A DNA stretch of 32,355 bases, from the NCBI GenBank assembly GCA_964529985.1, contig CAZGYL010000002.1, forward strand, positions 1 through 32,355, given 5' to 3'. How positions within the stretch are numbered: the first letter of the stretch is position 1; each line of letters starts with the position of its first letter. The notes beneath the pieces are model-generated. The model saw nothing but the letters and a program-made list of their open reading frames with translations. It was not told the origin of the DNA and ran no database searches. This document shows, one piece after another, positions 5,071 through 32,355 of this stretch. The position numbers were made by a program, and so were the translations under genes. This DNA comes from an uncultured Planctomycetia bacterium. GTDB taxonomy: Bacteria > Planctomycetota > UBA8108 > UBA8890 > UBA8898.

Positions 5071-5112
5071 GCTTGACAATGCTTGTCTGCACGGAAATGG
5101 AGGCCGGTTCTC

Positions 5113-6141: not shown

Positions 6142-6218
6142 ACAGGGCTGTTTTCCTGCGTGCTCTCTTGGGGCATGATGGCGCAAACAGACGGAAAAAC
6201 AGCTTTGGAGGTCAAGCG

Positions 6219-10190: not shown

Positions 10191-10204
10191 CGGTATGCCG
10201 CCTC

Positions 10205-10233
10205 TTGACGATTCCTGCCGCTGCCGCGATAGT
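10205..10233 (+). promoter_or_regulatory. Candidate sigma70-type promoter for the Gfo/Idh/MocA gene
   Basis: TTGACG (10205-10210), a 17-nt spacer, then GATAGT (10228-10233), about 60 nt upstream of ATG 10296. Pattern match only. Confidence 0.25.
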
Positions 10234-10295
10234 GGGCGCGTGGGACCGGAGGCCGAGGAACCCGGAGTCTGAGCCTGCCACAGGAGGAAAGCACA

Positions 10296-11411: not shown

Positions 11412-11648
11412 CGTGAGGTGCGTTCGGCAGCTGGAGCCCGGCGGCGTGCACCGAGAGCTCCTGCAGGTGCGTAGCCCCAGCCCATGACCGCGTACGGCCG
11501 GTAACGCCGCTTCGGCTTCCGAACGAAACTCCTTTCGCGGCTTTTTGCCGGAACAGGTATGATGCCGGAAGTGAGCCACCGAAGACCTGACCCGTTACAC
11601 CTCCCCGGAGGGAATCCGGCGGGCTCGGTTTTGTGTGCTGCAGTCAGG

Positions 11649-14600
11649 TCAGAGCGAAGCCTCGCAGCCCAGGTCTCCGTCGGGAGCTTGCGGATCCACT
11701 GTGGCGTCGACTCCCGGGTCGGGGTACGGTGGCAGCGGCGGCGGTCCGTGTCTGAACCTGAAATCGACCAACCAGATCGCATCGCTTAGATCGACCCTGC
11801 CGTCATCGTTTGCGTCCGCTGCGTCCATGCAAGGCGGCGGCGGTCCGTCCCTGAAGAGGTAGCTGAAGACCCAGATTGCATCAGCCACATCAACACGGCC
11901 ATCATGGTTCGCATCGCCGCGCACAAGCTTAGGCGGGATGATTTCAGCTTCACAGGGCTCTGAGGCTGCTGTGCTGGGACCAATCGAGGCTATCGCCCTG
12001 TAGGTGTAAGTCCCGGGCGGTACCCTCTCGTTGACGTAGGAAGTCGCGTTACCGGGTAGAGGCCCGAAGTAATCGGTACCCTCCGGACCCTCTCTTTCGA
12101 TAACTATCGAGTCATAAGTCCCAGCAAGGCTCCAGGTTAAGGTCACCCGTCCTTCCAAACCAATGACAACAGCCGCGCAAATGAAATCGGCGGGCGGGGA
12201 GACAACCTCCACCTCGCAGTATGCAGGCGGCGTCACTCCACTGGTTTCACTTTCTGCATACAACAGGTACTGGTGGGTTCCAGCAGGAACCCCCTCGTCC
12301 TTCCACTCGGTCACAGTGCCTTCAAGCACCGCAACCTCAACGGCATCACGATACACATGGATCGTCTGATACTGCCAGCTGTTTGTCCAGGCCAGCGTAA
12401 CGGTGTCGTCATGAGCTTCGCAGTTGACAAGCACAGGCGGCGGAAGAACTTCGACTTGACAAACAGCCGCTGCACTGACGCTGCCAAGGGCGAAGCCGAT
12501 CACCTCATATGTCCACGTGGCCGGTGTGGGGAGCTGATCCACGTAGCTTGTGGTGGATCCGTCAAGGCCCTGCGCAATAACTTCACCGTTGCGGCGCACC
12601 GTGATCGAGTCGTAAACCATGGGGTTCGTCCAGCTCAAGCGCACCTCATTTGCAATCGGTTCTATCGCGCAGGCAAGTTCACCCGGAGCCGGTATGACGT
12701 TGACTGTGCAAGCGGCGGGGCCGCTCAGGCTTTCACCGATTCGGCCGCGCACTTCGTAGTTGTACGCACCCGGCTCCAGATCACTGTCGGTGTACTCGCT
12801 TACATCGCCGGCAAGACCCTCTTCAATCACCGTACCGTTTCTTGTGATCTGAATGCTGTCGTAGGCGTCGGTATCAGTCCACCTCAGGTGAACGGTCGTG
12901 CCTTCAGCGCTGCAGACAAGGTCGACCGGCGGCCGAGGAATCGTAAGAGTGCACTGAACCGCAGGCGCGCTGCTGGGGTCTACGATTCCTATAACTTCGT
13001 ATGTGTAGGTGGTTCCGGGTTCAACGTCCGTGTCGCGGTGCGTGGTGGTTGTTCCCGGAAGCTGAACAAGTTCTTCACCGTTTCTCAGGATCACGATCGA
13101 ATCGTAAACCTCAGGCAGGCTCCAGCTCAAGGTAACGCCTGTTTCATCAGCAAGACAATGCAATTCGGCAAGCGGCTGTGGAGCATGCACGCTGCAGGAA
13201 GCTGGATCGGAAAGACTTGAACCCGCTTTGGCCACGATTTCGTACTCGTAGTCGCCCGGTCCGAGCGGTCCGTCCTCATAGCCTGTCTGATCGCCGGGCA
13301 AAGCGGCGACAAGCTCGCCGTTGCGATACAGCTTGAGTTCCTGGTAACCGGCCGGCACGGTCCAAGTGATACTTACGGTTCCAGCTCGGCTTGAGCAAGA
13401 CAGATCGCCCGGGGGCGCAATCGTGGAGATCGTACAGGAAGCAAGCTCGCTTATTGCAGCTCCTTGAACGGTCCGCACTCCGTACTCATACGTACCGGGA
13501 ACGCTGACCGTCTCCTCGAAAGTCGTAGCATCACCGGGAAGCTGGGCTACAACCTGGCCGTCCCGCAACACTTCGACTCCGGCTGCCGGCCCGGGCAAAG
13601 TCCAACTCAAGCGCACGGTCGCACCTACGGTCTCACACGCCAGATTTTCCGGAGGCAACGGAAGCGAAATCGAACAGGCGGCAGGTGCACTCAAGTTGCC
13701 GTCGATCACTCCGACCACTTCGTACTCGTAGGTTTGACCTGCTTGTGCGGTTTGGTCCAGATACTGCGTTGCATCACCGGGAAGCGAGGCCAGCACCTCT
13801 CCGTTTCGAAGAACCTTCACTTCGCTGTAAGCGTCGCCGTTTTGCCATGTGAGGGTGACTTGAGGCCCTTCAGCGCTGCGGGCAAGATCAAAAGGAGCGC
13901 CCGGCGCCACAACCTCACAGTCCACCGCCGCGCTTATCGATGTCCCGAAGCTCGCCACAATCTCGTAACGGTGGGTTCCCACTTCAACACCTGAGTCCAT
14001 GTACTGCGTTGTGTCACCCGCCAACTGGGCGACCAACCCGCCGTCGCGGTAAAGAGCGATACTTTCGTAAGTGGCGGTATTGGTCCATTGCAACGTCACG
14101 GTATCGGCCACAGCGCTGCATGTTAAGTCGGCAGGCGGAGTCAAAACAACGATCTCGCATGCTGCAACCGCGCTTGCAGAGCCTTCCACCTCTCCGAACA
14201 GTTCGTAGGTATGAGTTCCGGGCGGCACATCTTGATCTTGATAAGCGGTGGTTCCACCCGGAAGTCGCGCCAACTCCTGGCCGTCTCTGAGAAGAACGAT
14301 TGTCTCGTACAACTCCCCGTTCTCCCAAACGAGGCTCACCACGGTCGCTTCGGCTGAGCAGGCCAGATTGGAAGGTGGCACCAAAATCTTCAGTATGCAG
14401 ACAACAGGGTCGGAGAGGTTCCCGTCCTTTTCTCCCGCAACCTCAATGCGATAGCTGCCCGCTGCAAGCCCTTCAACAATGTACTCGGTTGTATCTCCGC
14501 TGACTACGATGTCGCCCAGTCCGGGAACGAGAATATGAACCGCATCGTACTGAACGGGCGAAGACCAGCTGATTGTTGCATTTTCTCCCGAAGCCGTGCA

Positions 14601-16907: not shown

Positions 16908-17069
16908 AACCTCCTCCCATGTTTGGACTTCGACCACCCGTTGTGGGTTTTTACGGGGGTTCGACCCGCTGCCGCCTCAGACCCACAGCCTTGTTGCCTG
17001 TTGGAAACAGAATCCAGTTTAAGCCTTCTTGGCGGGCCGGATCAAGAGCCGCCGGGCCGTGAAGGGGCC

Positions 17070-18122
17070 TTAGAGGCCGCCGTAAAGCTCGCAGGATAGG
17101 TCATCCGGAGTCGGATCCAGGCCCAGATCCGGGAAAGGAGGGGGCAGGGGGGGCGCTCCGCCGAACAGGAAGCCCAGAATGCGGACCGGGTCTGCTATGT
17201 CAATTACACCGTCGTCGTTTGCATCGGCCGTATCCAGGCACCCTACGGCCTTGTTGGAGAAAAGGTAGCCCAGCACCAGAATTGGATCCGCGATATCGAG
17301 GGAACCGTCGCCGTTTGCATCGCCCCGCATAAACAACGTCCCGCAAGCAAACGAGCCTTCGGCGCAGTCCGTTCCGTTGCAAACCTGTACGGCAACGTTT
17401 TTCGGCTCCCCGCAATTGTAACTCTCAATGATGATTGTGTTCTGGTCCACAAGGGTGAATTCCTGTGCAACCCCCTCAACAGATACCTGTGTCTGAGGGA
17501 TGAACCCCGAACCTTGAATGGTTACCGTTGCTACGTTGCCTTGGTACTCTGCGCTCACTTCCGAAATAGAGATCTCAGGCCAGGTTACGTTCAACGTGCC
17601 GTCACGCAGCGCGGGGAATATGTCGTCCAGCGCCTCGTTGGTCGCATATGCGTTTCGAAGGAGCGCTCCCGTACCGCCTTCGCCCGTGCGGCGTCCTTCC
17701 TCGGGGAGGTGCAGCGCGTAGACACCGGGCGGAATGCCGGGATTCAGCTTACAGGTGAAGCCTCCCACCGGAATATCAGTGCCGCCGGGCAACGTAGTAC
17801 CGTCATACGGCGGCAGGAAGTCCATGATCCAACCGAAGGCCGCCCAAGTATCTGTCACAATCGAGTCGGACCACTCAGGGGCAGGATCGCTCGGCAGAAT
17901 AAGATCTTGGACTTGGAACATACCCGGGTCATATGCAACGACCGCGGTTAAGCCGGCGATATTATCTTCAGCGGTAAGGAAAAAGGAAACGGAGAAGGTG
18001 CTTTCAAGAGCCGATACGTTCACGTCACCGACCCTAAGAACAGGCTCCCCCGCAAACAAGCCGCACTTGTATACACAAAGCACAAGCACCGAAAACAACA
18101 AAGATTGTCGGAGTAATCGCAT
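17070..18122 (-). CDS. Secreted 350-aa protein: cohesin-like domain, IPT/TIG domain and dockerin-like module
   Basis: Signal-like N-terminus MRLLRQSLLFSVLVLCVYKCGLFAG. Residues about 27-175 (LRVGDVNVSALESTFSVSFFLTAEDNIAGLTAVVAYDPGMFQVQDL ... GGFTCKLNPGIPPGVYALHL ... DGTLNV) follow the cohesin strand pattern. An IPT-like segment is present (ISEVSAEYQGNVATVTIQGSGFIPQTQVSVEGVAQEFTLVDQNTIIIES). The tail reads RGDANGDGSLDIADPILVLGYLF...DANDDGVIDIADPVRILGFLF. AGAGG lies 6 nt upstream of ATG 18122. Confidence refers to the CDS; the cohesin assignment alone is about 0.55. Confidence 0.85.
   Translation of the reverse strand: MRLLRQSLLFSVLVLCVYKCGLFAGEPVLRVGDVNVSALESTFSVSFFLTAEDNIAGLTAVVAYDPGMFQVQDLILPSDPAPEWSDSIVTDTWAAFGWIMDFLPPYDGTTLPGGTDIPVGGFTCKLNPGIPPGVYALHLPEEGRRTGEGGTGALLRNAYATNEALDDIFPALRDGTLNVTWPEISISEVSAEYQGNVATVTIQGSGFIPQTQVSVEGVAQEFTLVDQNTIIIESYNCGEPKNVAVQVCNGTDCAEGSFACGTLFMRGDANGDGSLDIADPILVLGYLFSNKAVGCLDTADANDDGVIDIADPVRILGFLFGGAPPLPPPFPDLGLDPTPDDLSCELYGGL
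17073..17330 (-). other. Dockerin-like module (C-terminus of the cohesin-like protein)
   Basis: MRGDANGDGSLDIADPILVLGYLFSNKAVGCLDTADANDDGVIDIADPVRILGFLFGGAPPLPPPFPDLGLDPTPDDLSCELYGGL. Confidence 0.7.
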
Positions 18123-18548
18123 AGCGCACCTCTGCTCGATCTTCTCATTACTATCCTAGAGCTTCTGCCAACCAAAAGCAACCGGCCGGGTCGGAGCATG
18201 GCATGTTTGCTGTGACAGCTCTTTAACAGAATGCGCCTGAGACCGGAACGACCTCAGGCGCCGCCCGAGCCGCCTTGGCGCAGCGGCACCGGTTCCCATA
18301 CAATAGAAAGGTCAGCAGGGCGTCGGCCTATAACGGTTGAAAAGTGCGATGGAACGGTTTCGGTTCACTATGGGAGAGGTCCCGTCCTTCATGTCGTTCC
18401 CGTTCGGGCTTCTCGGTTTTCACAATAGGTTTAACAGCGCCTTACTGGTCCGAGTAGGTGTAGTGCGAATCGGTGCAGTTTGAACGCAAGCTGTACAGCT
18501 CGGAACAGGATCCCGCTTTTTCAGTTTGAAACGGAGGTAGCTTAGTTA

Positions 18549-21500
18549 ATGGGCGGTGATAATAACATGGGCATCTTGAGAAAAGTTACAGCGCTTCCGA
18601 CGTTGTACGCATTCGTATTGCTGCAAAGCGCGTTGGCAGGGCCTTACGACGTACGCATCAACGAACTTCATTACCACCCGGCGGGTGAAGACCAGGCGCT
18701 TGAATTCGTTGAGCTTCACAACACCGGGGAGACGGACGTTGACCTTTCAGGCTGGTCGTTCACCTCGGGAATCACTTACACGTTTCCCTCTGGTGTTGTG
18801 ATACCGGCTTTCGGCTACTTGGTCGTCGCCAAGGATCCCGCCGCGCTTCAGGAAGTTTTCGGCCCCCTGCCTGTTGTAGGCCCTTACGAAGGATTTCTTT
18901 CGGACGGTGGCGAATGGATCAGGCTTGAAGATTCACGGGGAAGGGTGATTGAAGAGTTCAGCTGGAGTGATTCGGCGGCTTGGCCCCAGAGGGCGGACGG
19001 CCGGGGTGCTTCGCTTGAGCTTATCCGCCCGCGCGCGGAGCCTGATTGGGGTGACAGCTGGGCCTCAAGTGTGGTCGTAAACGGCACCCCAGGTTCGGTA
19101 AACAGCCATTCCGAAGGGTACGAAGAGCAGACGATCCTCACCGAGGGCGCGCAAGGGCGCTACTTCAAGGGCGTAGCCGATCCTCCCGCCGATTGGACGG
19201 ACCCTGATTTTGATGACTCTTCGTGGCCTTCGGGGCCCAGCGGTTTCGGTTACGGGGACGGGGACGATGCCACCGTGCTTACGAATATGCAGGGCAATTA
19301 CAGCACCGTTTACGTGCGCATGTATTTCAGCCTGACCGATACCGATTTCCGGAAACTTTCCCTTTCGGTTGTTTTTGACGACGGATTTGTCGCTTACCTG
19401 AACGGCCAGGAAGTGGCGAGGTTTCTGGCTCCCGGTTCCCCCGGAGAGTTTGTGCCTCATACAGCTTTAGCCGCTGATCTCCACGAATACACCGACGGAC
19501 CTGCCGCAGTGGACCTGACGGCGTTTATTCCGCTGTTGCGTGAAGGTGACAACGTTCTTGCTCTTGTGGGTCTTAATGAATCGCTTGATTCCTCAGATCT
19601 TTCGCTCGCGCCCACTCTTTCGGGGGTGAAGCGGGTTTTGGGCATCGATGAGGTAATGGGCCGGCGTGTTGTGGAATCGGTTATTCGGCAGGGAGAACGG
19701 TGGCGTTATTTCAAGGGCACGGAAGAGCCGCCCGAGGGCTGGACGGCCGTTGATTTCGACGACAGTGCGTGGCCTGAGGGGGTGGCGGGCTTCGGCTACG
19801 GCGACAACGACGACGCCACCGTGCTTGAGGATATGCAGCGGATTCCCGGGACCCAGCCCGGATACAGCACGCTTTACCTGCGCCGGACCTTTTCCCTGCA
19901 GGGAGACCCCCAGTCGGTGCACCGCCTTTACCTGCGGATCGATTACGATGACGGTTTCGTCGCCTATCTCAACGGTGTAGAGGTGGCCCGCAGCCCGAAT
20001 GTCACCGGATCGCCGCCTGCCCACGATGCGCTTGCAACCGCGCAACACGAAGCAGGCGCTGTGGAAACCTATGATATTACGGCGTTTCGCGGGCTGCTCA
20101 GTGACGGAGTGAACTGCCTGGCCGTTCAAGGGCTCAACACTTCACTTGAAAGCTCAGACTTTTCTCTCCACCCGGAGCTTGTGATCGACCACACGGTAAG
20201 AGCGCGGCCTGAGGCATTGAGCTGTCCGGTTGAGATCAACGAGATCGCGCCTTCTGCCGTGGGAGGGTGGATCGAGCTTTTCAATCCATCGGACGCTCCG
20301 TGGGATTTGAGCTCTTACCGTTTGGGACTCTCACCTCGGCAGACGGCGCTTTACGGTTTTCCCCAAGGCACCATCATTCAGCCGCACTCTTTCTTGGTTG
20401 TGAACGAGCAGGATCTCGGCGCTCAGATACCGACCGCCGGTGTGGTTCTTCTTACTGATCCTGCAGGGCTTCTTCTTGTCGACAGCCGCGCTTACGATCT
20501 CAAAGGCGCGGCGGCCGGCTCCTGCGCGCGGTATCCTGACGGCAGGGGGCCCATGAAGGTGGTTCCCGGCGCCACGCCCGGTGAACCGAACACACCTTCT
20601 CTTTCACACGACGTGGTGATCAATGAGATTATGTATCACCCCGCAGCAGCGCCCGGGGAAGTGGAGCCCGAATGGATAGAGCTCTGGAACACTGGCTCTG
20701 AAACTTTGGACTTAACGGGTTGGGCTTTTACCAGGGGAATAGACTTCCGCTTTCCCGACGGAACCACTTTGCCTGCAGGAGGTTTTCTTGTTGTCGCCAA
20801 GGATCCCGACCGGCTTACAGCCGAGTATGGGACGACCAATGTGGTGGGGCCGTTTGAGAGCGGACTTAAGAACGACGAAGAGTTGATCCTCCTGCGGGAT
20901 AACTATGGCAATCAGGTGGACAGAGTTCATTACGCCGACGACGGCAGGTGGCCCACAGAGGCAGACGGCGGGGGGCCGAGCATTGAGCTTATCAATCCGG
21001 CGTATGACAACAGAAGCGGCCAAGCGTGGGCTGCAAGCGCCGGAGCCGGAACCCCGGGCGCTATGAACAGCGCATATCAGGCGGATGTTCCACCCCTTGT
21101 AAAAAGAGTCCGCCACAGCCCGGCTGTACCTTCTTCCGCCTCGCCTGTTACGATCTCCTGCAGTGTGGAATCGCCGACTTCGCCCATCGCCCGTGTGACT
21201 TTGTACTGGAAGATAGACGGCCAGGATGACTTCACCGCTACTGAGCTTTCCGATGATGGAGCCTCGGGTGACGGAGAGGCAGGCGATGGGGTTTGGGGAG
21301 TGATTCTCAATCCGTTTCCCGCCGGCACGGTTGTCTGTTTCGCCATTGTAGCTGAAAGTGAGACGGGCAAAAGCCGCACAGTGCCGGCCTCCTGGGCTCA
21401 AGACCAAAGCGTGACAATGCTTTTCCAAGTTCAGGACGATTTGCCTTTCTGGTCTGATCCCACCTACCGGATCGTGATGACGGCTGATCGGATAGATACA

Positions 21501-24500: not shown

Positions 24501-26798
24501 AGTTACGTTGATGTAGGCTTGACGCTTTTTGAGACCTACACCTACCGCATCAGGGCCTTCAACGATCAAGGGTACTCCGATTGGTCCAACGAGATAAGCG
24601 TGCAGGTTCAACCCACGCCTTCTGCTCCCACGGATTTGGTGGTGCTTGAAGTTACTGCAAATGCAATAACCTTGGGGTGGAAGGACAACTCGGACGATGA
24701 GAGCGGTTTTGAGCTCTACAGGACCGAACCGAACGGTGAGACCTTTTCCCTTCTTGTTCGGCTTGGACCCGATGTGACCACCTACCGGGATGATTCGCCT
24801 CCCCTTGAACCCGGAGCTTTGTACCGTTACCGCGTGCGGGCGTACAATGCAAGCGGAGCTTCCGGTTGGTCGAATACGGTTGAGCAGCGCACGGGTATCC
24901 CTCCTTCGGCACCTGAAAATCTTTCCGTCTTAAGCTACGGGGTCGACGGCATAACGATCGGGTGGACCGATACCTCGGACAACGAGCAAGGTTTTGAGAT
25001 CCAGATAAAGGAGCCCCAAAGCGGCGAGTGGCGGGTTCGCGCCACCGTTGCTGCAGACACTACGAGGTTTGAAGACACTGGATTGCAGCAGGATACCGTT
25101 TACAGCTACAGGGTCCGTTCCTTTAATGAAGCAGGAGCTTCGGCGTGGGCCGGCCCTGTCAGCCGGAAGACGGGCAAAGTGCCGGAACCGCCCCAGGACT
25201 TCTCGGTTGTTGATGTCGGAGCTGATTGGATTCTCCTTGCCTGGGGAGAGGCGGAGGGAACAGGCTATGAACTTGAACGCGCCGTCGAGGAAGGCCCGTT
25301 CGAACCCCTCTCTTTGTTTACGCCGGGAACACTGTCCTACGCGGATACCGGGCTTGCTCCCGGAACGACCTACCGCTACCGCCTGCGCACCATAAACGCC
25401 TTTGCAACTTCGGCCTGGTCGTCTGTTGCAGTCGGAACTACAGGGCACCTGCCCCAAGCCCCCGCCGATCTGGCGGCGGCTGAGGTTGCAGCCTGGCCTC
25501 CGCCTGATACGCAGCCCAGGCCGCTTCCCAGTGAAGTGACATACACCGTGACTCTTACCTGGGACGACCGCGCGGACAACGAGGTGGGCTTTGAGCTTCA
25601 GCGCCGGATCGGGGAGGAACCGTGGAGCAGTTTGATCGAGCTTCCCGCCGACTGGGAAAGTTACACCGACCGGGATATTCCGCCCGGAGCGTCCCTATCT
25701 TACCGGATCCGCGCTTTGAACCGATTCGGGCATTCCGAGTGGAGTAACGAAGTATCGCTGCGCATTGCAACGGCGCCCTCTGCGCCTGCAAATGTGCGTA
25801 TCACGGAGGTCGGGGTGAGCTCGCTAACGGTGCAATGGGAAGATCGTTCGGAAAACGAGCTCTGGTTTGAGGTCGAAAGGCGGCCTGAAGGCGGGCGGTG
25901 GCAGGTAGCCGGTGTTGTCAGTGCAGACCAGACGACGTTCCGCGATCAAGATCTTCAGCCTGACACAAGCTACACGTATAGAGTTTGGGCACGCAGCCCT
26001 TTCCAGTACTCTTTGCCCTCCGAAGAGGTAACCGGCCGCACGGGGCGGGCTCCGAATGCACCTTCGTCTTTGCACGAGAAAAGCTGGAGCACAGAGGCCA
26101 TAACATTAGGGTGGGAGTATGAGCCTGCTCCGGGGACCGAATTGGTCGTAAAGCGGCGCTCAGGGCGGCAAGGCCCGTGGATCGAAGTTGCACGCTTTCC
26201 TGGAGAGGCAACGAGCTGGACGGATCAGAACGTCGAAAGCGGAGAAGTTTATGAGTACCGGATCGAGGCCCGGAACGAGTTCGGTTCCTCAGAACCCAGC
26301 TCGGTGCTGCTGACCTGTGCAGGCGTTAAGATCCTCCAGATCGCGCCTGCTGAAGGGCATATCGAAGGAGGTGATCCTGTTGAAATAAGGGGGATCCATT
26401 TTGAAGAGGGCCTTGAGGTGACTTTCGGCGGGCGGGTGCTCGGAGGGCTGAGTGTCGTTGATTCCGGGCGCTTAACCGGTGTAGTCCCGCCCGGCAAGAG
26501 GGCCGGAGCCGTCGATGTGGCTCTTACCTGGAATTCTCTAAGCGATGTAGTTCCGGCTGGATACCGTTACAGCTTGGGACTGCTTCATGGAGATGCCAAC
26601 GGAAACAACTTCGTAAGCATTGCGGACGCGATTTACATTCTTTCCTATCTCTTCCGTCACGGCGAGGCGCCTTATTGCAAAGCGCTTGCGGACGTCAACA
26701 ACGACGGATCGTTGGATATAAGCGATGCGACGTTCCTGCTTAATTATCTTTTTGGAGGCGGTCCCGCACCTTATCCGGAACGGGTGGACTGCAGGTGA
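18549..26798 (+). CDS. Giant secreted protein (2749 aa): LTD, 2 unassigned jelly-roll-like modules, 2 LTD, Ig-like domain, CotH kinase-like domain, third module, Ig-like domain, right-handed beta-helix, 7 FN3, IPT/TIG, dockerin-like module
   Basis: Signal-like N-terminus (ILRKVTALPTLYAFVLLQSALAG). Lamin-tail-domain motifs: VRINELHYHP...EFVELHN...VDLSGWSF, VEINEIAPS..GGWIELFNPS, VVINEIMYHP...EWIELWNTG. CotH blocks: YRIVMTADRIDTL, FYNVGIRYRGRSARYHTPKSYRVQL, GDDYYLYRRPSDGKWVLIPWDVDDSF. Parallel beta-helix repeats: VTLTVEPGTELIF ... NTIVDNTKAGIV. Seven FN3 domains, an IPT domain (VKILQIAPAEGHIEGGDPVEIRGIHFEEGLEVTFGG) and the tail GDANGNNFVSIAD...DVNNDGSLDISD follow. GGAGG (18533-18537) precedes ATG 18549. 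Confidence 0.9.
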   Translation: MGGDNNMGILRKVTALPTLYAFVLLQSALAGPYDVRINELHYHPAGEDQALEFVELHNTGETDVDLSGWSFTSGITYTFPSGVVIPAFGYLVVAKDPAALQEVFGPLPVVGPYEGFLSDGGEWIRLEDSRGRVIEEFSWSDSAAWPQRADGRGASLELIRPRAEPDWGDSWASSVVVNGTPGSVNSHSEGYEEQTILTEGAQGRYFKGVADPPADWTDPDFDDSSWPSGPSGFGYGDGDDATVLTNMQGNYSTVYVRMYFSLTDTDFRKLSLSVVFDDGFVAYLNGQEVARFLAPGSPGEFVPHTALAADLHEYTDGPAAVDLTAFIPLLREGDNVLALVGLNESLDSSDLSLAPTLSGVKRVLGIDEVMGRRVVESVIRQGERWRYFKGTEEPPEGWTAVDFDDSAWPEGVAGFGYGDNDDATVLEDMQRIPGTQPGYSTLYLRRTFSLQGDPQSVHRLYLRIDYDDGFVAYLNGVEVARSPNVTGSPPAHDALATAQHEAGAVETYDITAFRGLLSDGVNCLAVQGLNTSLESSDFSLHPELVIDHTVRARPEALSCPVEINEIAPSAVGGWIELFNPSDAPWDLSSYRLGLSPRQTALYGFPQGTIIQPHSFLVVNEQDLGAQIPTAGVVLLTDPAGLLLVDSRAYDLKGAAAGSCARYPDGRGPMKVVPGATPGEPNTPSLSHDVVINEIMYHPAAAPGEVEPEWIELWNTGSETLDLTGWAFTRGIDFRFPDGTTLPAGGFLVVAKDPDRLTAEYGTTNVVGPFESGLKNDEELILLRDNYGNQVDRVHYADDGRWPTEADGGGPSIELINPAYDNRSGQAWAASAGAGTPGAMNSAYQADVPPLVKRVRHSPAVPSSASPVTISCSVESPTSPIARVTLYWKIDGQDDFTATELSDDGASGDGEAGDGVWGVILNPFPAGTVVCFAIVAESETGKSRTVPASWAQDQSVTMLFQVQDDLPFWSDPTYRIVMTADRIDTLRSRSIWSDELLDATFIAGEEIFYNVGIRYRGRSARYHTPKSYRVQLTDDEKFRDMKRININGYRPETQHLGMGLFRVSRVPAPISRPVRFVFDNKVVNRYVHMEAVHEGFLRRRFPGDDEGNLYRGEQRANLDWRGSDKEAYRPYYLKRTNVEEDDFSDIMELCYVFDRDTTPDDEVFYQRLQELVDIEEWARFFAVHTVISTQEGGIYRDKGDDYYLYRRPSDGKWVLIPWDVDDSFLNPTERLFRPTVPSIVRFLHHPAVTPYYYAALKELTGGAFSEETIGRKIDELIGIISENRAEELHAFAQQRRTFIDERVPTEFHASLGPDTLVSAESETWRYFRGTTEPSGGTTAWTAVDFDDSSWPTGPGGFGYGDGDDATVLDDMRGNYTTVYLRHTFTVDDPSEIQSLALAVLVDDGFVAYLNGTEVARFHAPGVPGDPVPAGSTATADWEARTPLTFRIENAGGILRRGTNVLALQGLNSSLNSSDFSLAATLGRGVLVAEGCPGDLYVAGTDLLISGVTSVADTFHVAVNGEEIPFDPMTGEFEALVSIAAGVEHIIVEALREDLSIYDRAEFTVTVVQSIGGVLPGDRTLEASGGPYLVGGSLVVPAGVTLTVEPGTELIFREGVTVRVEGGISAEGTQDLPIVLSGVSCVENWGAFDLRGTTQDNRFAWCVFKGAGALGSSPAALTVRSGNVALSHCTFEDISGDALFGASSTISVADTTIRRADRGVVLEWCPSAAIERTLIEDLQGTGTCISVNGSMASPVAIVDCTVGDTPGVGVTVENGAVRVSGCTISGCGKAGLSLYGSQRSIVEKSLIHHNHIGIALHDSHRALLDHNTIVDNTKAGIVCSEATEGRGSGHAEVRSCIVYFNGEALQIDDLGTAAFAFSDIEMTPLPPGEGNFNSDPLFTDHGAAQYSLSADSPCIGAGENGTDVGAIPYTDVPGAPRSLRVVGVTSSSIALAWDDASVNEDGFELYRKGPGEEDFQLIAALAADTTSYVDVGLTLFETYTYRIRAFNDQGYSDWSNEISVQVQPTPSAPTDLVVLEVTANAITLGWKDNSDDESGFELYRTEPNGETFSLLVRLGPDVTTYRDDSPPLEPGALYRYRVRAYNASGASGWSNTVEQRTGIPPSAPENLSVLSYGVDGITIGWTDTSDNEQGFEIQIKEPQSGEWRVRATVAADTTRFEDTGLQQDTVYSYRVRSFNEAGASAWAGPVSRKTGKVPEPPQDFSVVDVGADWILLAWGEAEGTGYELERAVEEGPFEPLSLFTPGTLSYADTGLAPGTTYRYRLRTINAFATSAWSSVAVGTTGHLPQAPADLAAAEVAAWPPPDTQPRPLPSEVTYTVTLTWDDRADNEVGFELQRRIGEEPWSSLIELPADWESYTDRDIPPGASLSYRIRALNRFGHSEWSNEVSLRIATAPSAPANVRITEVGVSSLTVQWEDRSENELWFEVERRPEGGRWQVAGVVSADQTTFRDQDLQPDTSYTYRVWARSPFQYSLPSEEVTGRTGRAPNAPSSLHEKSWSTEAITLGWEYEPAPGTELVVKRRSGRQGPWIEVARFPGEATSWTDQNVESGEVYEYRIEARNEFGSSEPSSVLLTCAGVKILQIAPAEGHIEGGDPVEIRGIHFEEGLEVTFGGRVLGGLSVVDSGRLTGVVPPGKRAGAVDVALTWNSLSDVVPAGYRYSLGLLHGDANGNNFVSIADAIYILSYLFRHGEAPYCKALADVNNDGSLDISDATFLLNYLFGGGPAPYPERVDCR
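21441..22460 (+). other. CotH (atypical protein-kinase-like) domain, copy 1
   Basis: Family-typical blocks IRYRGRSARYHTPKSYRVQL, NLYRGE, IEEWARFFAVHTVI, DDYYLYRRPSDGKWVLIPWDVDDSF. Boundaries are approximate. Confidence 0.75.
24339..26324 (+). repeat. Seven tandem FN3 domains (about 95 aa each) in the 18549-26798 protein
   Basis: Each unit reads P.AP..L.V..V....I.L.W.D.S.NE.GFEL.R.......(W/F).......AD.T.Y.D..L...T.Y.YR(V/I)RA.N..G.S.WSN.V, for example PGAPRSLRVVGVTSSSIALAWDDASVNEDGFELYRKG...TYTYRIRAFNDQGYSDWSNEISV. The fifth unit carries a Pro-rich insertion. Confidence 0.8.
26580..26795 (+). other. Dockerin-like module (C-terminus of giant protein 1)
   Basis: LLHGDANGNNFVSIADAIYILSYLFRHGEAPYCKALADVNNDGSLDISDATFLLNYLFGGGPAPYPERVDCR. 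Confidence 0.7.
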
Positions 26799-26816
26799 CA
26801 TGCGCAGGAGGTCTTC

Positions 26817-29800
26817 ATGAGAACGCGAGGAACGAGAGTCGGCCGCGGTCTTGGAGCGGTTCTCGTTGCAGCTGTATTTGCGTTTGCAGGCGCTTTGAGC
26901 GCCGGCTCGCCCTTTGCGCTTAAGATCAACGAGCTGAATTACCACCCCGCCTCGGACCAAGAGAGCTTGTCCTTTGTCGAGCTTTTCAATGCAGGAGGCG
27001 GACAGATCGATTTGACAGGGTTTCGGCTCGAGGGGGATGTGCGCTACAACTTCGGCCATGTAACTGTAGGGCCGCGGGCCTATTTGGTTGTGGTGAAAGA
27101 CCTTCAAACTGCGCGCAGCGCTTTCGGCGAAGTGCGTATGGTCGGGAATTTCAGCGGAAATTTGGGCCACGGAGGCGGGCTGGTACGCCTTGTTGATGCA
27201 GGCGGCCGCGTTGTTGACGAGGTTCGTTATGATGATTCTTACCCCTGGCCGGAGCGCTGCGACGGCAGGGGCCCGAGCCTTGAAAGGCGCTCTCCTTACG
27301 CGCCTGCCCAGTGGGCTGACTCTTGGCATGCAAGCTTGACGCTTAACGGAACCCCCGGCCTTAAGAACAGCACTTACAGAGCCTTGGAGGACCAGGTTCT
27401 GGTTTCGCAAGGCGCTTTGTGGCGCTACTTCAAAGGAACCGCCGATCCGCCCGAGGGTTGGCTCCTTCCCGGATTCGACGACTCTTCCTGGCAGAGCGGC
27501 GCGAGCGGTTTCGGATACGGCGATGACGATGACGCCACGATTCTTGATGATATGCAGCAGATTGCAGGCCAGCAGGACGGCTATACCACGCTTTTTATAC
27601 GAATCCGTTTCACGCTTTCGAAGCTCAATTATCTCAGGCTCCACCTGCACGTTCGGTACGATGACGGCTTTGTGGCCTACCTGAACGGGGTCAGAGTGGC
27701 GCGGGCATATGCCCCTCAAGAGCCGATCACACACGATATGCTTGCAGCAGGCCTGCATGAGGCGGGACCTTCTTTCCAGGTTTTCGACATCTCAAACGCT
27801 GTTTCGGCCCTTAGAGTAGGTGAGAACGTACTTGCGCTTGTAGGCTTCAACGCCAGCCCCGATTCCTCGGATTTTACGCTTGATCCTTATCTGACGGCTA
27901 CGAGAGAGGTCACCGGGCTTGAGGAAATAGGCGGGCGGCCCGTACGTGAAACAGTGATACCGGCAGGGGCCTCGTGGCGCTATGCAAAAGGAACCGGGGA
28001 GCCGGATTCCGCTTGGAGGGCGGTTGACTTTGATGACACGGCATGGGAAGAAGGGCCTGCTGGTTTCGGGTACGGAGACGACGATGACGCAACTGTTTTG
28101 TCCGATATGCGCGGGAATTACACAACGGTTTACCTGCGCCGGAATTTCACCATCGATGACATGACGGGGCTTGTCGGGGTTCACTTGGTGATCGATTACG
28201 ACGATGGCTTTGTTGCGTACCTGAACGGAACGGAGGTGGCGCGTTCACTTGCTCCCGGGCAACCGGGGGATCCGGTTCCCTACAACGCCACGGCGACGGG
28301 CTCGCACGAGGCGGGAACGCCGGTTGATTTCGACATCTCTTCGGCGCTCGATCTCCTTGTAGCGGGAGAGAACTGCCTTGCTGTCATCGGGCTCAATTCG
28401 AGCCTGACAAGCGGAGATTTTTCTCTTAATCCGCGTTTGGATCTCGTGCGGGAAATTCCGGCTGATTCCGGGGCCTTGCAGTGCAAAGTGCGGATAAACG
28501 AAATCGCACCGGCGTCGCGCGGGGGCTGGGTTGAGCTTTTTAACACAGGCGGAGCGCAGTGGGATCTTTCGGGGTACTGCCTGAGTGTTGATCCGCGAGC
28601 ACCCTGCGCCTACACATTCCCTGAGGGCACGCAGATTCCTGCGGGGGAATTCCTGCTGATTGATCAGGCGGAGCTCGGATTTGAGCTGCCGGACGAATCT
28701 ACGATTACGCTTACGGATCCGAGCGGTTTTATCCTTGTTGATTCGATCTCCTACGCGCTTGGGGTCGCCGGAGCTTCCTGCGCGCGCTACCCCGACGGCT
28801 CGGGAACGCCGCAGGTGGTGCTTGAGGCTACCTCAGGTGCACCTAATGCTCCGCCACCCCGATTCGGCGTGGTTATAAACGAGATCATGTACCACCCGCT
28901 TACACCCGGTGGAGGGAAAGAAGTCCACTGGCTTGAGCTTTTAAATACAAGCGGCCAAGTGCTGGACTTAAGCGGTTTTCGATTCACAAAGGGACTTGAC
29001 TTTGAAATCCCCGAGGGCACAACCATTGATCCGGGAGGGTTCCTTGTCGTTTCGCCGGATCCCCAAGCCGTATCAGACGCTTACGGTATAAGCAGGGTTG
29101 TGGGAGGATTCGACGGCGGGCTTAAGAACGACGGTGAGGTTATTGAGCTTCGCGACAACCTGGGCAACATCGCAGACACGGTGCCCTATGCGGACGACGG
29201 CTCCTGGCCGAGGGAGCCTGACGGAACGGGCCCGAGTCTTGAGCTTATCAACCCTGAGTATCCAAACGAGGTCGGATCGGCGTGGGCCGCCTCAACCGGC
29301 ACCGGAACCCCCGGAGAGGCGAACTCCGCTTTCAGTGACAACCCGCCGCCTATAATCGCATGGGTCCGGCATGCGCCTTTAGTGCCCACCTCAAACGATG
29401 CGGTGCTTGTGACCTGCCTTGTTGCAAGCCCTTCCGAGCCGGTTGAAAGCGTCACGTTGTCTTGGCGGCGTGACGGGGAAGACAACTGGAGCGAAGTGCC
29501 TATGGCGGATGACGGAGCGAACGGGGACGGCGCTGCCGGTGACGGGATTTGGGGTGCGCAGATTGATCCTCAGCCTGACGGCACGATCGTTTGTTTCCGT
29601 GTTACAGTGCTCGCTCGGGACGGAAGGCAGGCTTATGCACCGCTCCGGTACAGCACAGATCCTTCAGCGTGCCTGCTTTACCAAGTGCAGGACGCTCTCC
29701 CATTGAGCGATCTTCCCACATATCGCATTGTCATGAAGGCTTCGGACCTTGCAGAACTGCGGAACCGCGATCCTGCAAGCGATGAACTTCTCCCCGCTAC

Positions 29801-32355
29801 TTTCATTGCAGGCGGCAGGGTTTATTACGATGTCGGGGTGCGGTTCCGAGGGGATGACACGCGCGCGGCCGAGCCGCATAACTTCAGATTGGATTTCCCG
29901 GACGCAGAGAGGTTCATGGGCCGCAAGCACCTTGATCTGAATGCACACTTCCCTTGGAACCAGTACCTTGCATTCAGGCTCTTCGCCGCAGCCGACGTGC
30001 CTGCTCCCGGCGCGCGTCTGGTGAGGGTTCTGCTTAACGGTGATCTGCGCGAGCCTTACGTAGAAGTGGAAGCAGTGGATAAGCCTTTTCTGAAACGCCT
30101 CTTTGCAGGCGACGACGAGGGCAACCTTTACCGAGGCGCGGCCGAGGCCGATCTGAGTTACCTCGGCCCTGATAAGGAGGCGTACCGGGGTCGTTATCAA
30201 AAGCGGACTAAACGCGAGGAGGATGATTGGAGCGATCTTATTTCGCTTTGTAAGGCCTTTACCGATTCAAGCGACCAAGAGTTTCCCTCAGCAATCGAGG
30301 CTTACATAGATGTGGACGAATGGCTCCGGTATCTTGCCGTACAAGCTGTCATCGGAAATGCAGGAGAAGCTCTCCAAACCGGCGTTGGAGATGATTACTT
30401 TCTTTACCGCAGGCCGAGCGACGGCAAGTTCGTGATCATACCCTGGGACATGGATGAAGCGTTCAGCCTGACCGACGGGGAGCTTACAGGCGGCGCGGTG
30501 CAGCCGCTTGAACGCCTGCGCTCGCACCCGGCTTTAAGCGGCCGCTATTTCAGCTACGTTATCTCTTTCTCTCAGAGCTTTCTCAGCCAGGACGGTATGG
30601 CCGCTTTTCTGGGAGATATAGCACAGGATATACCTCAACAGGAGATAAACCGGCTTACGAATTTCGCCTCGCTCAGAAGTGCTTTCATAGAGCAAGCCGT
30701 CCCCACTTCTCTTACGGTTGAGCTTGAATCCGGAACCTTGGCTGAAGCGGGCCGCATGTGGCGCTTCTTCAGGGGAAAACAGGAGCCGAGCGGCGGGACA
30801 CTCCAGTGGACCTCCCCTTCTTTTGACGACAGCTCCTGGGAAGAGGGCCCCGGGGGTTTCGGCTACGGAGACAACGACGATGCCACCGTGCTTGCGGACA
30901 TGATGAATTCCTACAGCACGGTCTACATACGCACTCGTTTCTTTGTTGAAGATCCTTCGGAGATAAGTGAGCTGGCCCTGTCCGTTGACTTTGATGATGG
31001 GTTTGTGGCGTACTTGAACGGTGTTGAGATCGCTCGTGCCAATGCACCGGGGGAAGCAGGCTCGCCGGTGCCTTTCGACGCCCTGGCGACAGCGGACCAT
31101 GAGGCGGGCGCACCTGTTTCCTTCAGGATCCCCGATCCGCAAGCCGTGCTTGTCGCAGGTGAAAACGTGCTTGCGGTCCAGGGGCTTAATGTGGCGCTCG
31201 GAAGCAGTGATCTGTCGCTTGCCGTTTCTTTGGGCCTGGGTTCTGTCGTGGATAATGAGTGCCCGGGCTTGATCTATGTTGCAGGAGCAAGCCTGATCGC
31301 CGCCGGTACAGCTCCCGTGATTTCAACTGCTGAGGTGCGGATCAACGGCACTAAGGTGGCTTTTGACAACCTAACCGGCCGCTTCGAGGGACAAGTCGAA
31401 CTTGTGCCCGGGGAGCAATCGATTGTGGTTGAGGCTCTTGATTCAGATGGGTTGGTAGTGGAGAGCAAGACGCTTGACCTTATCGGAGTCAGCACTTTGG
31501 GCGGAACGCTTACAGGTGCAGTGACGCTTTCGGCCGAGCGCAGTCCGTACTTCGTTTCCGGGACGGTGACCGTGCCTGCAGGGTCGAGTTTGACGATCGA
31601 GCCCGGCGTACGCTTTATCATCGATTCGCGGGGCAGGTTCCTTGTACGGGGAAAGATTCAGGCGCTCGGCACTGAAGAAGCGCCGATCCTCTTTGAGCGC
31701 AAGCCGTGTATCAGCTATTGGGGCGGAATACGCCTTGAGAATACTCGCGAAGACAACGTGCTGCAGTGGTGCCGCATATCGAGGGTGTCTGCGATCGGGG
31801 CTGTGTACGCCGGGTCAAGCAAGCTTACCGTGGACAGTTGCCTTATAACGAGAATCGACGGCGAAGGGCTTTACACTCCCGGGTGCGATCTCCATGTTTA
31901 CAACACGGAGATTTCCTATACACACGAGGCGATAAGCGCCGACGGCTGCAGGCCGGCGGTTTTTGAGTACCTCTACGTGCACAATCTCATCGGAAAGGCC
32001 GATTGTATAGATCCCAACGCATGTCATCCTGCTTATATCCGGTATTGCCTCTTGGAAAAGACAAGTGATGACGGAATAGATGCAGACCGCGGAACCGTTG
32101 AGGCCATAGGGAACGAGATCAGGAACTGCGGAGATCAGGCTATAAGCCTTGTTGGCCGCGGGAACAGCTATTTGGCGTTCAATGTACTTCACCATTGTAA
32201 TTACGGTGTGGCGCTTAAGGACAGCCACCGGGCCGTATTGGATCACAACACGATAGTTGACAACCGCACCGCGGGGATCAGGCTTTACGAAAAAAACGCC
32301 GGCCGGGGCGGGGGCCATGCAACGGTGAAAAGTTGCATTGTGTATTTAAACGGCC
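26817..32355 (+). CDS. Tandem paralogue of the preceding giant LTD/CotH/beta-helix protein; 3' end lies beyond the window (at least 1846 aa seen)
   Basis: This ORF is not in the supplied track because no stop occurs before the window edge. AGGAGG (26806-26811) lies 5 nt before ATG 26817, which is 18 nt after the upstream TGA. My translation begins MRTRGTRVGRGLGAVLVAAVFAFAGALSAGSPFALKINELNYHPASDQESLSFVELFNAGG. I spot-checked the frame at 27420, 27975, 29340, 30180, 31260, 31620 and 32280; all were in frame with no stop. The domain order is co-linear with copy 1: LTD, WRYFKG modules at 27420 and 27975, two LTDs, Ig-like domain, CotH (29697-30705, GDDYFLYRRPSDGKFVIIPWDMDEAF), a module at 30759, then beta-helix repeats to the last codon (…HATVKSCIVYLNG). 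Confidence 0.85.
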   Translation, partial: MRTRGTRVGRGLGAVLVAAVFAFAGALSAGSPFALKINELNYHPASDQESLSFVELFNAGGGQIDLTGFRLEGDVRYNFGHVTVGPRAYLVVVKDLQTARSAFGEVRMVGNFSGNLGHGGGLVRLVDAGGRVVDEVRYDDSYPWPERCDGRGPSLERRSPYAPAQWADSWHASLTLNGTPGLKNSTYRALEDQVLVSQGALWRYFKGTADPPEGWLLPGFDDSSWQSGASGFGYGDDDDATILDDMQQIAGQQDGYTTLFIRIRFTLSKLNYLRLHLHVRYDDGFVAYLNGVRVARAYAPQEPITHDMLAAGLHEAGPSFQVFDISNAVSALRVGENVLALVGFNASPDSSDFTLDPYLTATREVTGLEEIGGRPVRETVIPAGASWRYAKGTGEPDSAWRAVDFDDTAWEEGPAGFGYGDDDDATVLSDMRGNYTTVYLRRNFTIDDMTGLVGVHLVIDYDDGFVAYLNGTEVARSLAPGQPGDPVPYNATATGSHEAGTPVDFDISSALDLLVAGENCLAVIGLNSSLTSGDFSLNPRLDLVREIPADSGALQCKVRINEIAPASRGGWVELFNTGGAQWDLSGYCLSVDPRAPCAYTFPEGTQIPAGEFLLIDQAELGFELPDESTITLTDPSGFILVDSISYALGVAGASCARYPDGSGTPQVVLEATSGAPNAPPPRFGVVINEIMYHPLTPGGGKEVHWLELLNTSGQVLDLSGFRFTKGLDFEIPEGTTIDPGGFLVVSPDPQAVSDAYGISRVVGGFDGGLKNDGEVIELRDNLGNIADTVPYADDGSWPREPDGTGPSLELINPEYPNEVGSAWAASTGTGTPGEANSAFSDNPPPIIAWVRHAPLVPTSNDAVLVTCLVASPSEPVESVTLSWRRDGEDNWSEVPMADDGANGDGAAGDGIWGAQIDPQPDGTIVCFRVTVLARDGRQAYAPLRYSTDPSACLLYQVQDALPLSDLPTYRIVMKASDLAELRNRDPASDELLPATFIAGGRVYYDVGVRFRGDDTRAAEPHNFRLDFPDAERFMGRKHLDLNAHFPWNQYLAFRLFAAADVPAPGARLVRVLLNGDLREPYVEVEAVDKPFLKRLFAGDDEGNLYRGAAEADLSYLGPDKEAYRGRYQKRTKREEDDWSDLISLCKAFTDSSDQEFPSAIEAYIDVDEWLRYLAVQAVIGNAGEALQTGVGDDYFLYRRPSDGKFVIIPWDMDEAFSLTDGELTGGAVQPLERLRSHPALSGRYFSYVISFSQSFLSQDGMAAFLGDIAQDIPQQEINRLTNFASLRSAFIEQAVPTSLTVELESGTLAEAGRMWRFFRGKQEPSGGTLQWTSPSFDDSSWEEGPGGFGYGDNDDATVLADMMNSYSTVYIRTRFFVEDPSEISELALSVDFDDGFVAYLNGVEIARANAPGEAGSPVPFDALATADHEAGAPVSFRIPDPQAVLVAGENVLAVQGLNVALGSSDLSLAVSLGLGSVVDNECPGLIYVAGASLIAAGTAPVISTAEVRINGTKVAFDNLTGRFEGQVELVPGEQSIVVEALDSDGLVVESKTLDLIGVSTLGGTLTGAVTLSAERSPYFVSGTVTVPAGSSLTIEPGVRFIIDSRGRFLVRGKIQALGTEEAPILFERKPCISYWGGIRLENTREDNVLQWCRISRVSAIGAVYAGSSKLTVDSCLITRIDGEGLYTPGCDLHVYNTEISYTHEAISADGCRPAVFEYLYVHNLIGKADCIDPNACHPAYIRYCLLEKTSDDGIDADRGTVEAIGNEIRNCGDQAISLVGRGNSYLAFNVLHHCNYGVALKDSHRAVLDHNTIVDNRTAGIRLYEKNAGRGGGHATVKSCIVYLNG
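29697..30705 (+). other. CotH (atypical protein-kinase-like) domain, copy 2
   Basis: YRIVMKASDLAEL, YYDVGVRFRGDDTRAAEPHNFRLDF, NLYRGA, VDEWLRYLAVQAVI, DDYFLYRRPSDGKFVIIPWDMDEAF. Boundaries are approximate. Confidence 0.7.

Follow-up and report, generated by a model that had tools for sequence, protein, structure and literature searches.

The window analyzed here, meaning the whole stretch of 32,355 nucleotides, belongs to a JGI metagenome contig of 42.6 kb (Ga0366836_1000831, sample 3300033156), of which it covers 32.3 kb, and contains a planctomycete cohesin-dockerin locus of four genes, designated A to D. The G+C content is ~57 to 59% throughout, and the best protein matches are found in metagenome-assembled genomes (MAGs) of Planctomycetota. 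The open reading frame (ORF) map places genes A and B on the minus strand and genes C and D on the plus strand. Gene A (positions 11649 to 16937, minus strand) comprises 1762 codons when counted from the first GTG; its probable start is the ATG at 16907, which yields the 1752-amino-acid protein called on the parent contig. Gene B (17070 to 18122, minus strand) encodes 350 amino acids arranged as a signal peptide, a cohesin, one Cys-rich immunoglobulin (Ig)/TIG-like domain, and a dockerin. Gene C (18549 to 26798, plus strand) encodes 2749 amino acids, and gene D (26817 to 32355, plus strand), a paralogue of C with 48% identity, runs past the end of the window; its complete product (P0127, 2721 amino acids) was obtained from the same 42.6-kb contig. 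The stop of C and the start of D are 18 nt apart, and A and B are separated by ~130 to 160 nt depending on the start chosen for A. B and C start at 18122 and 18549, respectively, leaving a divergent spacer of exactly 426 nt (18123 to 18548). These coordinates confirm the arrangement described in an earlier, sequence-only reading, in which four adjacent genes, two per strand, diverge from a 426-nt spacer, and the hydrophobic, signal-peptide-like N-terminal segments that it reported are visible in all four proteins.

The three C-terminal tails that had been quoted as duplicated calcium-loop/helix modules are found verbatim at the ends of A, B, and C. As the criterion for a type-I dockerin, we used two tandem segments of ~22 residues, each consisting of a 12-residue Ca2+ loop (D-x-[DN]-x-[DN]-G-x-x-[DSN]-x-x-D) followed by a helix. 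A regular expression for the calcium loop, run over the six-frame translation of the 32-kb window, recovered exactly six loops, all paired at the C termini of A, B, and C, so that chance is excluded. In its complete form, D ends in a TIG domain and a short-tail dockerin (...ENVDCR); with this tail recovered from the parent contig, all four proteins carry a dockerin, and the two-segment loop-and-helix architecture is directly visible in each of them. The segments are spaced 33 amino acids apart, as in the family at large. Against the Pfam Dockerin_1 gathering score of 22.9 bits (PF00404), A scored 25.4 bits as a whole protein and 32.3 bits (E 1.2e-7) as a tail alone, and C scored 28.0 and 35.5 bits (E 1.1e-8), respectively, both above the threshold. 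The tail of B fell narrowly short at 19.5 bits, but this ~85-amino-acid stretch, used alone as a query, retrieved hundreds of PF00404-annotated planctomycete proteins with E values of 1e-25 to 1e-36. Overall, the sequences support identification of the tails of A to D as type-I dockerins, in agreement with the earlier reading.

Two dockerin subtypes are present at the locus. A and B carry a generic long tail: the dockerin of A (11652 to 11936, minus strand) has a long Pro-rich, Cys-terminated extension (...PPPLPPYPDPGVDATVD...DLGCEASL), and that of B (17073 to 17339, minus strand), whose structural model shows three helices at amino acids 278 to 320, has a long extension as well (...GGAPPLPPPFPDLGLDPTPDDLSCELYGGL). 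The dockerin of C (26568 to 26795, plus strand) is of a short-tail subtype, with DANGNNFVS as its first loop and a tail ending in ...GPAPYPERVDCR. In C and D, the first loop has N/N or N/R at positions 5 and 6 and S at position 9. A further feature of planctomycete dockerins is a pair of cysteines, one in the linker between the two calcium-loop segments and the other near the C terminus past a Pro-rich stretch, typically in the form ...PPxPxPFPxxGxDPTxDxLxC. Of the 476 dockerin modules collected from the window tails and 298 retrieved proteins, 410 have both cysteines. To our knowledge, this signature is not known from clostridial dockerins, and it is a reasonable inference from the sequences that the linker and C-terminal cysteines would form a disulfide clasp.

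The N-terminal domain of B (17580 to 18047, minus strand; amino acids 26 to 181, ~155 amino acids) had been read as a cohesin of about 150 amino acids. The domain falls below the Pfam Cohesin gathering threshold (PF00963, 24.1 bits), and no cohesin was matched when phmmer and profile searches of PDB sequences were conducted with the B domain or the B-family profile. Because these sequence searches were negative, the domain is called a cohesin on the strength of its fold match and of transitive profile homology. An AlphaFold2 (AF2) model of B, built from seven family members, reached a predicted template modeling score (pTM) of 0.61, with per-residue confidence (pLDDT) above 90 across most of amino acids 30 to 180. 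When this model was compared to the PDB with Foldseek, the N-terminal domain matched type-I cohesins with template modeling (TM) scores of 0.75 to 0.80 (normalized to the target) and a root mean square deviation of ~3 Å over ~160 columns. The matched structures include CohA2 of C. acetobutylicum (6kge_A) as well as OlpA (3ul4_A) and CipA (1aoh_A, 1anu, and 1ohz_A) of C. thermocellum, and cohesins dominate the single-domain matches of the model, in agreement with the nine-stranded beta-sandwich (jelly-roll) fold of this family. In an hhalign comparison, the N-terminal domains of the B family (A3) aligned to PF00963-positive planctomycete cohesins (A4) with a probability of 97.2% (E 3e-11, 144 columns), and the A4 profile in turn matches solved clostridial cohesins by hmmsearch (e.g., 3ul4_A, E 3.9e-5). 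A word-indexed homologue search with the B domain came back empty despite the presence of the 99%-identical P0001 in the collection, which we take as a sensitivity artifact; negatives from this kind of search with short, diverged queries deserve little trust. The earlier call thus stands on two independent lines, fold and profile homology, but not on the Pfam threshold, and on these grounds we accept the N-terminal domain of B as a diverged cohesin.

Behind the cohesin, B continues with an Ig-like spacer domain (17340 to 17579, minus strand), which matches TIG at 16.8 bits and CoaZ_rpt_PGGG ("choice-of-anchor Z") at 30.4 bits, for a cut-off of 30; NCBIfam "choice-of-anchor" domains match C and D as well. 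A monovalent adaptor scaffoldin has this order of cohesin, Ig, and dockerin, and so do the CipA Coh9-X-DocII constructs 4fl4 and 3kcp, the best full-length Foldseek matches of B. The Cys-rich Ig repeat occurs once in window B, P0002, and P0003 and six times in orthologues of 643 to 669 amino acids (L003:7568-9571, L005:7803-9770, and L014:7735-9744), the number of Ig repeats being the main difference between the two forms. Judged from these sequences, such variation in copy number would make B an adaptor of variable reach. A lipoprotein signal or other anchor in B was considered and rejected, as its VLVLC is a non-canonical lipobox that is missing from the orthologue P0002.

The putative cargo consists of very large multidomain proteins, and the domain content assigned to them by the sequence-only reading was borne out by Pfam. 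In protein A, a signal peptide is followed by an FG-GAP beta-propeller region (approximately amino acids 40 to 530; FG-GAP, E 7e-46), a stalk of ~14 fn3-like repeats (fn3, E 2e-17) of ~80 amino acids each with Cys near both ends, and the C-terminal dockerin. Protein C comprises, in order, a signal peptide, a lamin-tail domain (LTD), two galactose-binding-like jelly rolls, two further LTDs, a CotH domain, a third jelly roll, a right-handed beta-helix, ~7 fn3 domains, a TIG domain, and the dockerin; three LTDs, CotH, Beta_helix, fn3, and TIG were detected by Pfam in both C and D. For CotH (PF08757, gathering score 23.8), C scored 114 bits (E 1e-32) and D 124 bits (E 9e-36), and the CotH domain of C matches that of B. 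cereus (5jd9) with an E value of 4.7e-8, with the IPWD-x-D motif aligned. The jelly rolls correspond to a domain of ~170 amino acids that is present in three copies each in C (19131 to 19655, 19677 to 20201, and 22491 to 23015) and D (27396 to 27920, 27951 to 28475, and a third copy) and contains the near-invariant motifs WRYFKG, GFGYGD.DDAT, and DDGFVAYLNG. No Pfam family of its own was found for this repeat at the thresholds used. Its AF2 model (pTM 0.83, with a poorly modeled loop at amino acids 40 to 53 that holds GFGYGDxDDAT) resembles the galactose-binding-like jelly roll at the N termini of GH2 enzymes. Assignment of the WRYFKG domain to the rhamnose-binding family CBM67, suggested by an NCBIfam rhamnosidase match and by 3w5m, was rejected, as the fold search favors the generic galactose-binding-like domain of GH2 enzymes. 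No glycoside hydrolase (GH), polysaccharide lyase (PL), or carbohydrate esterase (CE) family was significant in A to D, where only Beta_helix/NosD, CotH, LTD, fn3, and FG-GAP reached significance, and no carbohydrate-binding module (CBM) family matched any of the four proteins. Although no CAZy catalytic family was detected, the three modeled galactose-binding-like jelly rolls in each of C and D and their pectate-lyase-type beta-helix leave a possible glycan-directed role open.

To place the locus among its relatives, genes of the B family, which combine this N-terminal cohesin with a dockerin and either one or six Cys-rich Ig repeats, were compared across contigs. In the window, and likewise at five other distinct loci, a B-family gene and a C orthologue adjoin divergently, and wherever the contig extends far enough for the neighborhood to be assessed, the B-family member has a C orthologue beside it. 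Across these five loci, the C orthologues are 51 to 65% identical and the B cohesins 37 to 60% identical. The loci are L001 (B 51% and C 65% identical), L003/L004 (GCA_041308185; a 667-amino-acid B-like protein and a C-D tandem, P0122/P0126), L005/L006 (a 655-amino-acid B-like protein), L007 (ADurb.Bin069; B-like gene at 9731 to 11662), and L014 (B-like gene at 7735 to 9744, with an intact dockerin); the orthologues in L007 and L014 are each ~82% identical to that in L005, and these may represent one sub-lineage. The genes beyond the B-C pair differ from locus to locus, which argues that the pairing is kept by selection rather than as residual synteny. Linkage of B and C is conserved. Further LTD-CotH genes follow downstream of C where the contig reaches that far, and the ADurb-like loci encode three further LTD-CotH proteins with long-tail dockerins. 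The B-like gene of L007, from the ADurb.Bin069 reference MAG, loses its frame just ahead of the dockerin (...VACAAGARSASGRSCSRWW...*), through either an assembly error or pseudogenization. When the B-cohesin profile was used to scan the species genomes of GTDB, a single locus was returned, in "Planctomycetes bacterium ADurb.Bin069"; the result is no reliable census, since it reflects either a rare family or overly strict patterns.

The short-tail subtype is private to C, D, and their orthologues P0122 to P0126, and across P0121 to P0127 it is characterized by a first loop of DxNGN[NR]xx[ST], in place of DxNxDGxxD, and a short tail of the form ...P.P..VDC[RE]. The clade with this private subtype is exactly the clade with an adjacent B-type cohesin, and the C homologues P0128 to P0133 have other tails and no adjacent B. 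Given the small sample and the relatedness of the lineages, we treat this coincidence as a lead: it hints at possible specificity and is not evidence of binding.

Beside more distant C homologues (38 to 47% identical; L008 to L012), the neighborhood is different. An FG-GAP protein lies directly upstream of, or divergent from, the C homologue in three of these five loci: in L008, a protein of 865 amino acids that contains an A-like stalk repeat and ends in a dockerin; in L009 (3813 to 9755), a divergent protein of 1980 amino acids with the dockerin directly behind its signal peptide; and in L011, a protein of 737 amino acids with no convincing dockerin, for which a faint match was discarded because none was clear in the N-terminal 100 or C-terminal 120 amino acids. 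The N-terminal dockerin in L009 indicates that the tag is not strictly C-terminal. On three unrelated contigs, a HEAT_2-repeat protein is encoded directly downstream of distant C homologues that are 38 to 44% identical (L010:18667-20055, L011:15330-17567, and L012:12511-13803); this is a second recurrent neighbor, and no such gene is present in the window.

To determine how widely the tail is distributed, 1.84 billion representative proteins were screened exhaustively with a profile built from the three tails in the window. Matches numbered 49,989 at E ≤ 1e-3, 25,718 at E ≤ 1e-10, and 539 at E ≤ 1e-30, and many of the matched proteins hold 3 to 13 matched stretches. In a sample of 66 top matches, all 66 contained Dockerin_1, 13 also contained a Pfam cohesin, six were subtilases, and three were FG-GAP proteins. 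Since 13 of these 66 tail-bearing proteins have a Pfam cohesin, cohesins and dockerins of this kind occur in the same lineages. Tail-bearing proteins also include PKD and esterase proteins, dockerin-cohesin-dockerin or multi-dockerin layouts are found in many planctomycete proteins, and 99 of the 120 best C homologues have a C-terminal dockerin. The tail with its Cys/Pro-rich extension is a lineage-wide module, so that genes for its partners may lie at any place in the genome. The sequence-only reading had described a self-contained assembly system and had asked whether the four-gene neighborhood is conserved in related genomes. Self-containment is not borne out, given the 25,718 matches at E ≤ 1e-10 and the tagging of most LTD-CotH proteins and many others. 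As for the neighborhood, the divergent B-C pair recurs in five further loci but gene A is not retained; the tag is lineage-wide, and the neighborhood is partly kept.

With moderate confidence, we propose that the locus belongs to a cohesin-dockerin assembly network widespread in Planctomycetota and that the B cohesin captures the dockerins of C and D as an adaptor. The modules are present, the B domain has both the fold and the homology of cohesins, and the linkage of B and C is conserved; who binds whom, the dependence on calcium, and the location at the surface are inferred. B would act as a small, secreted, monovalent adaptor whose N-terminal cohesin captures the C-terminal dockerins of C and D in a Ca2+-dependent manner and possibly that of A too. 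The generic dockerin of B itself would then plug the loaded adaptor into another cohesin protein encoded elsewhere, an anchoring or polymerizing scaffold. Very large proteins resembling adhesins or enzymes would in this way be displayed on the cell or in its surroundings, presenting either the FG-GAP propeller on its 14-domain stalk or the sugar-binding-like jelly rolls, CotH kinase-like domain, and beta-helix. Several observations weigh against this proposal. The Pfam Cohesin match of the B domain amounts to 13.4 bits (E 0.093) and covers amino acids 29 to 73 only, and no cell-anchoring module (SLH, sortase signal, or lipobox) was found in A to D. The B-C adjacency is limited to fairly close relatives, in which C is at least 50% identical; the distant C homologues in L008 to L012 have no adjacent cohesin gene, and A is not kept beside B in any of the five further loci. 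Finally, with the tail on more than 25,000 protein clusters, the closeness of the genes is a poor guide to pairing.

The main alternative explanation is that the dockerin is a generic surface-attachment tag, docking many unrelated secreted proteins onto partner scaffolds encoded elsewhere; B would be one tagged protein among others, its cohesin would bind some other dockerin, and the four genes would be neighbors as co-regulated or functionally related surface proteins that do not bind each other. The sheer number of tail matches agrees with a generic tag, as do their spread over subtilase, FG-GAP, PKD, esterase, and cohesin proteins, the dockerins on C homologues whether or not a cohesin gene is nearby, the "choice-of-anchor" matches in B, C, and D, and the dockerin-cohesin-dockerin and multi-dockerin layouts, which suggest a genome-wide network. 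This explanation is possible, although we doubt it, since the B-C adjacency has been kept in five further distinct loci while all other flanks changed and the private dockerin subtype of C and D is found where a B-type cohesin is present. In a more elaborate form of the adaptor proposal, Planctomycetota would have evolved, independently of Firmicutes, a hierarchical system of two specificities: the diverged B cohesin would recognize solely the private C/D subtype, and the long-tail dockerin of B would join the genome-wide network. We think this unlikely. If it were true, extracellular CotH-kinase/beta-helix machines of ~300 kDa would be mounted on the cell surface together with an integrin-like FG-GAP adhesin, and the compact, linked receptor-ligand set could show what non-cellulosomal cohesin-dockerin pairs do.

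Two other explanations are given little weight. B might assemble head to tail into chains or a matrix, to which the large proteins attach or from which they stay independent; a cohesin and a dockerin do share one chain in B, its orthologues vary solely in the number of Ig spacers (one versus six), and dockerin-cohesin-dockerin proteins are common in the phylum. In characterized type I/II systems, however, the cohesins and the dockerin of one scaffoldin chain have different specificities, and the AF2 monomer, with a pTM of only 0.61, gave no sign of a confident intramolecular cohesin-dockerin contact. We regard self-assembly as quite improbable. We are equally skeptical that the tails bind no cohesin at all and are instead Ca2+-dependent, disulfide-clasped EF-hand-pair modules for folding or stability, glycan or cell-wall retention, or export, with the B domain a generic Ig-like or carbohydrate-binding beta-sandwich. 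Such a role would accommodate the lineage-specific two-Cys/Pro-rich addition, which lies outside classical dockerins, as well as the sub-threshold Pfam score of the B cohesin and the vast excess of dockerins over recognizable cohesins, of which the sampled tail-bearing proteins gave 13 in 66. It is at odds with a fold match that is specific to cohesins rather than other beta-sandwiches (TM ~0.8), with the clear homology of the B domain to Pfam-positive cohesins, and with the sharing of proteins and lineages by cohesins and dockerins far above chance. The adaptor proposal remains our preferred explanation.

Among characterized systems, B shares its order of cohesin, Ig-like module, and dockerin with the Coh9-X-DocII end of C. 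thermocellum CipA (4fl4 and 3kcp) and with monovalent adaptor scaffoldins, a group that includes ScaC of Ruminococcus flavefaciens, a single-cohesin adaptor. B differs from these in its host, a Gram-negative-type planctomycete, in a cohesin too diverged for the Pfam threshold, and in a dockerin with a putative Cys clasp and a Pro-rich tail; in place of the X module, it has a Cys-rich TIG/"choice-of-anchor Z" repeat as its spacer, the locus has no CBM and no carbohydrate-active enzyme cargo, and its binding partners are candidates. Unlike the clostridial cellulosome, moreover, the locus has one cohesin, in B, and neither a multi-cohesin scaffoldin nor a CBM nor dockerins borne by GH, PL, or CE proteins. 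It is not a cellulosome. Non-cellulosomal cohesin and dockerin modules have reportedly long been known, as in a 2009 survey by Peer et al., and the locus resembles them in placing single cohesins and dockerins on non-cellulolytic secreted proteins; the Foldseek matches of B include the Archaeoglobus fulgidus cohesin 2xdh and the C. perfringens GH84C cohesin 2w1n (ranks 4 and 46). What sets it apart is the genetic linkage, in several lineages, of a candidate receptor with candidate ligands, together with a dockerin of a distinct subtype with the predicted Cys clasp.

The closest precedent is the "planctosome" proposed in silico for freshwater Planctomycetes (Andrei et al., ISME J 2019; PMC6461901), in which an LTD giant is the cohesin-bearing anchor, a dockerin-HYR-cohesin protein the adaptor, and dockerin-bearing M12B/M14 peptidases the cargo. 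Both are non-cellulosomal planctomycete complexes with an LTD giant and a small adaptor that combines a dockerin and a cohesin, here B. In the present locus, however, the LTD proteins C and D carry dockerins, as would-be cargo, instead of cohesins; the adaptor order is cohesin-Ig-dockerin; the cargo is CotH/beta-helix and FG-GAP proteins in place of peptidases; and the planctomycete lineage is a different one. No dockerin-bearing peptidase was found in the window or the rest of the contig, and subtilase-dockerin proteins occur elsewhere in the phylum, as judged from the tail-match sample. The idea as such is not new: a planctomycete cohesin-dockerin assembly with LTD proteins and a dockerin-cohesin adaptor had already been put forward (PMC6461901). 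The cargo is likewise less alien to cellulosomes than first claimed, since the C. thermocellum cellulosome contains the dockerin-bearing CotH protein Cthe_0044 (CseP) and the LTD-LTD-Fn3-CotH protein Cthe_0239 (PMC6083626). By Pfam domains, these show the same unusual combination of LTD, fn3, and CotH fused to a dockerin; they measure 62 to 117 kDa, compared to ~300 kDa for C and D, which add three galactose-binding-like domains, the beta-helix, seven fn3 domains, and TIG. The description of the cargo as non-cellulosomal consequently holds for the lack of classical cellulases but not for the dockerin-bearing CotH and LTD-CotH proteins.

The divergent spacer between B and C is presumed to hold the promoters of both genes. 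No conservation was seen between its sequence and the equivalent spacers of L001, L003, and L005, no Rfam family matched it, and promoter and terminator scans gave background levels; for these reasons, no regulatory element is proposed. The spacer does contain a hairpin at 18233 to 18261 (GCGCCTGAGGTCGTTCCGGTCTCAGGCGC) with a 13-bp stem, including 9 G-C pairs, and no T-run after it. Elsewhere on the contig, D is followed by genes for an AXE1-like esterase and an FG-GAP_3/UnbV_ASPIC protein, neither with a dockerin. On the other side of the locus, a single ORF of 1340 amino acids (6168 to 10190, plus strand) joins a full-length penicillin amidase (Ntn hydrolase; 442 bits) to a GH43 domain (175 bits), an unusual fusion that also has no dockerin. 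Preceding it, an ORF at 5083 to 6141 (plus strand), beside a glutamate-synthase-like gene, gives a strong match to NrpR (NRD1_2, 249 bits, plus a winged-helix domain), a nitrogen repressor family known mainly from methanogenic archaea.

Overall, the analysis confirms that this planctomycete cohesin-dockerin locus is genuine and that its pairing of an adaptor with a giant protein is conserved. The locus is not unprecedented: it exemplifies an assembly system best known from bacteria that degrade cellulose, it falls in a kind that has been recognized and hypothesized about before, and its tag is lineage-wide. No experimentally tested planctomycete cohesin-dockerin pair was found in the literature. 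The dockerin is present on tens of thousands of planctomycete protein clusters, for which there is one published model, the computational planctosome. The locus supplies a compact, linked set of constructs, comprising one 155-amino-acid cohesin and four dockerins of two subtypes, and because this small set holds a candidate receptor and its candidate ligands, linked across lineages, experiments on specificity would be cheap. The locus would also give a first handle on the function of the extracellular LTD-CotH giants.

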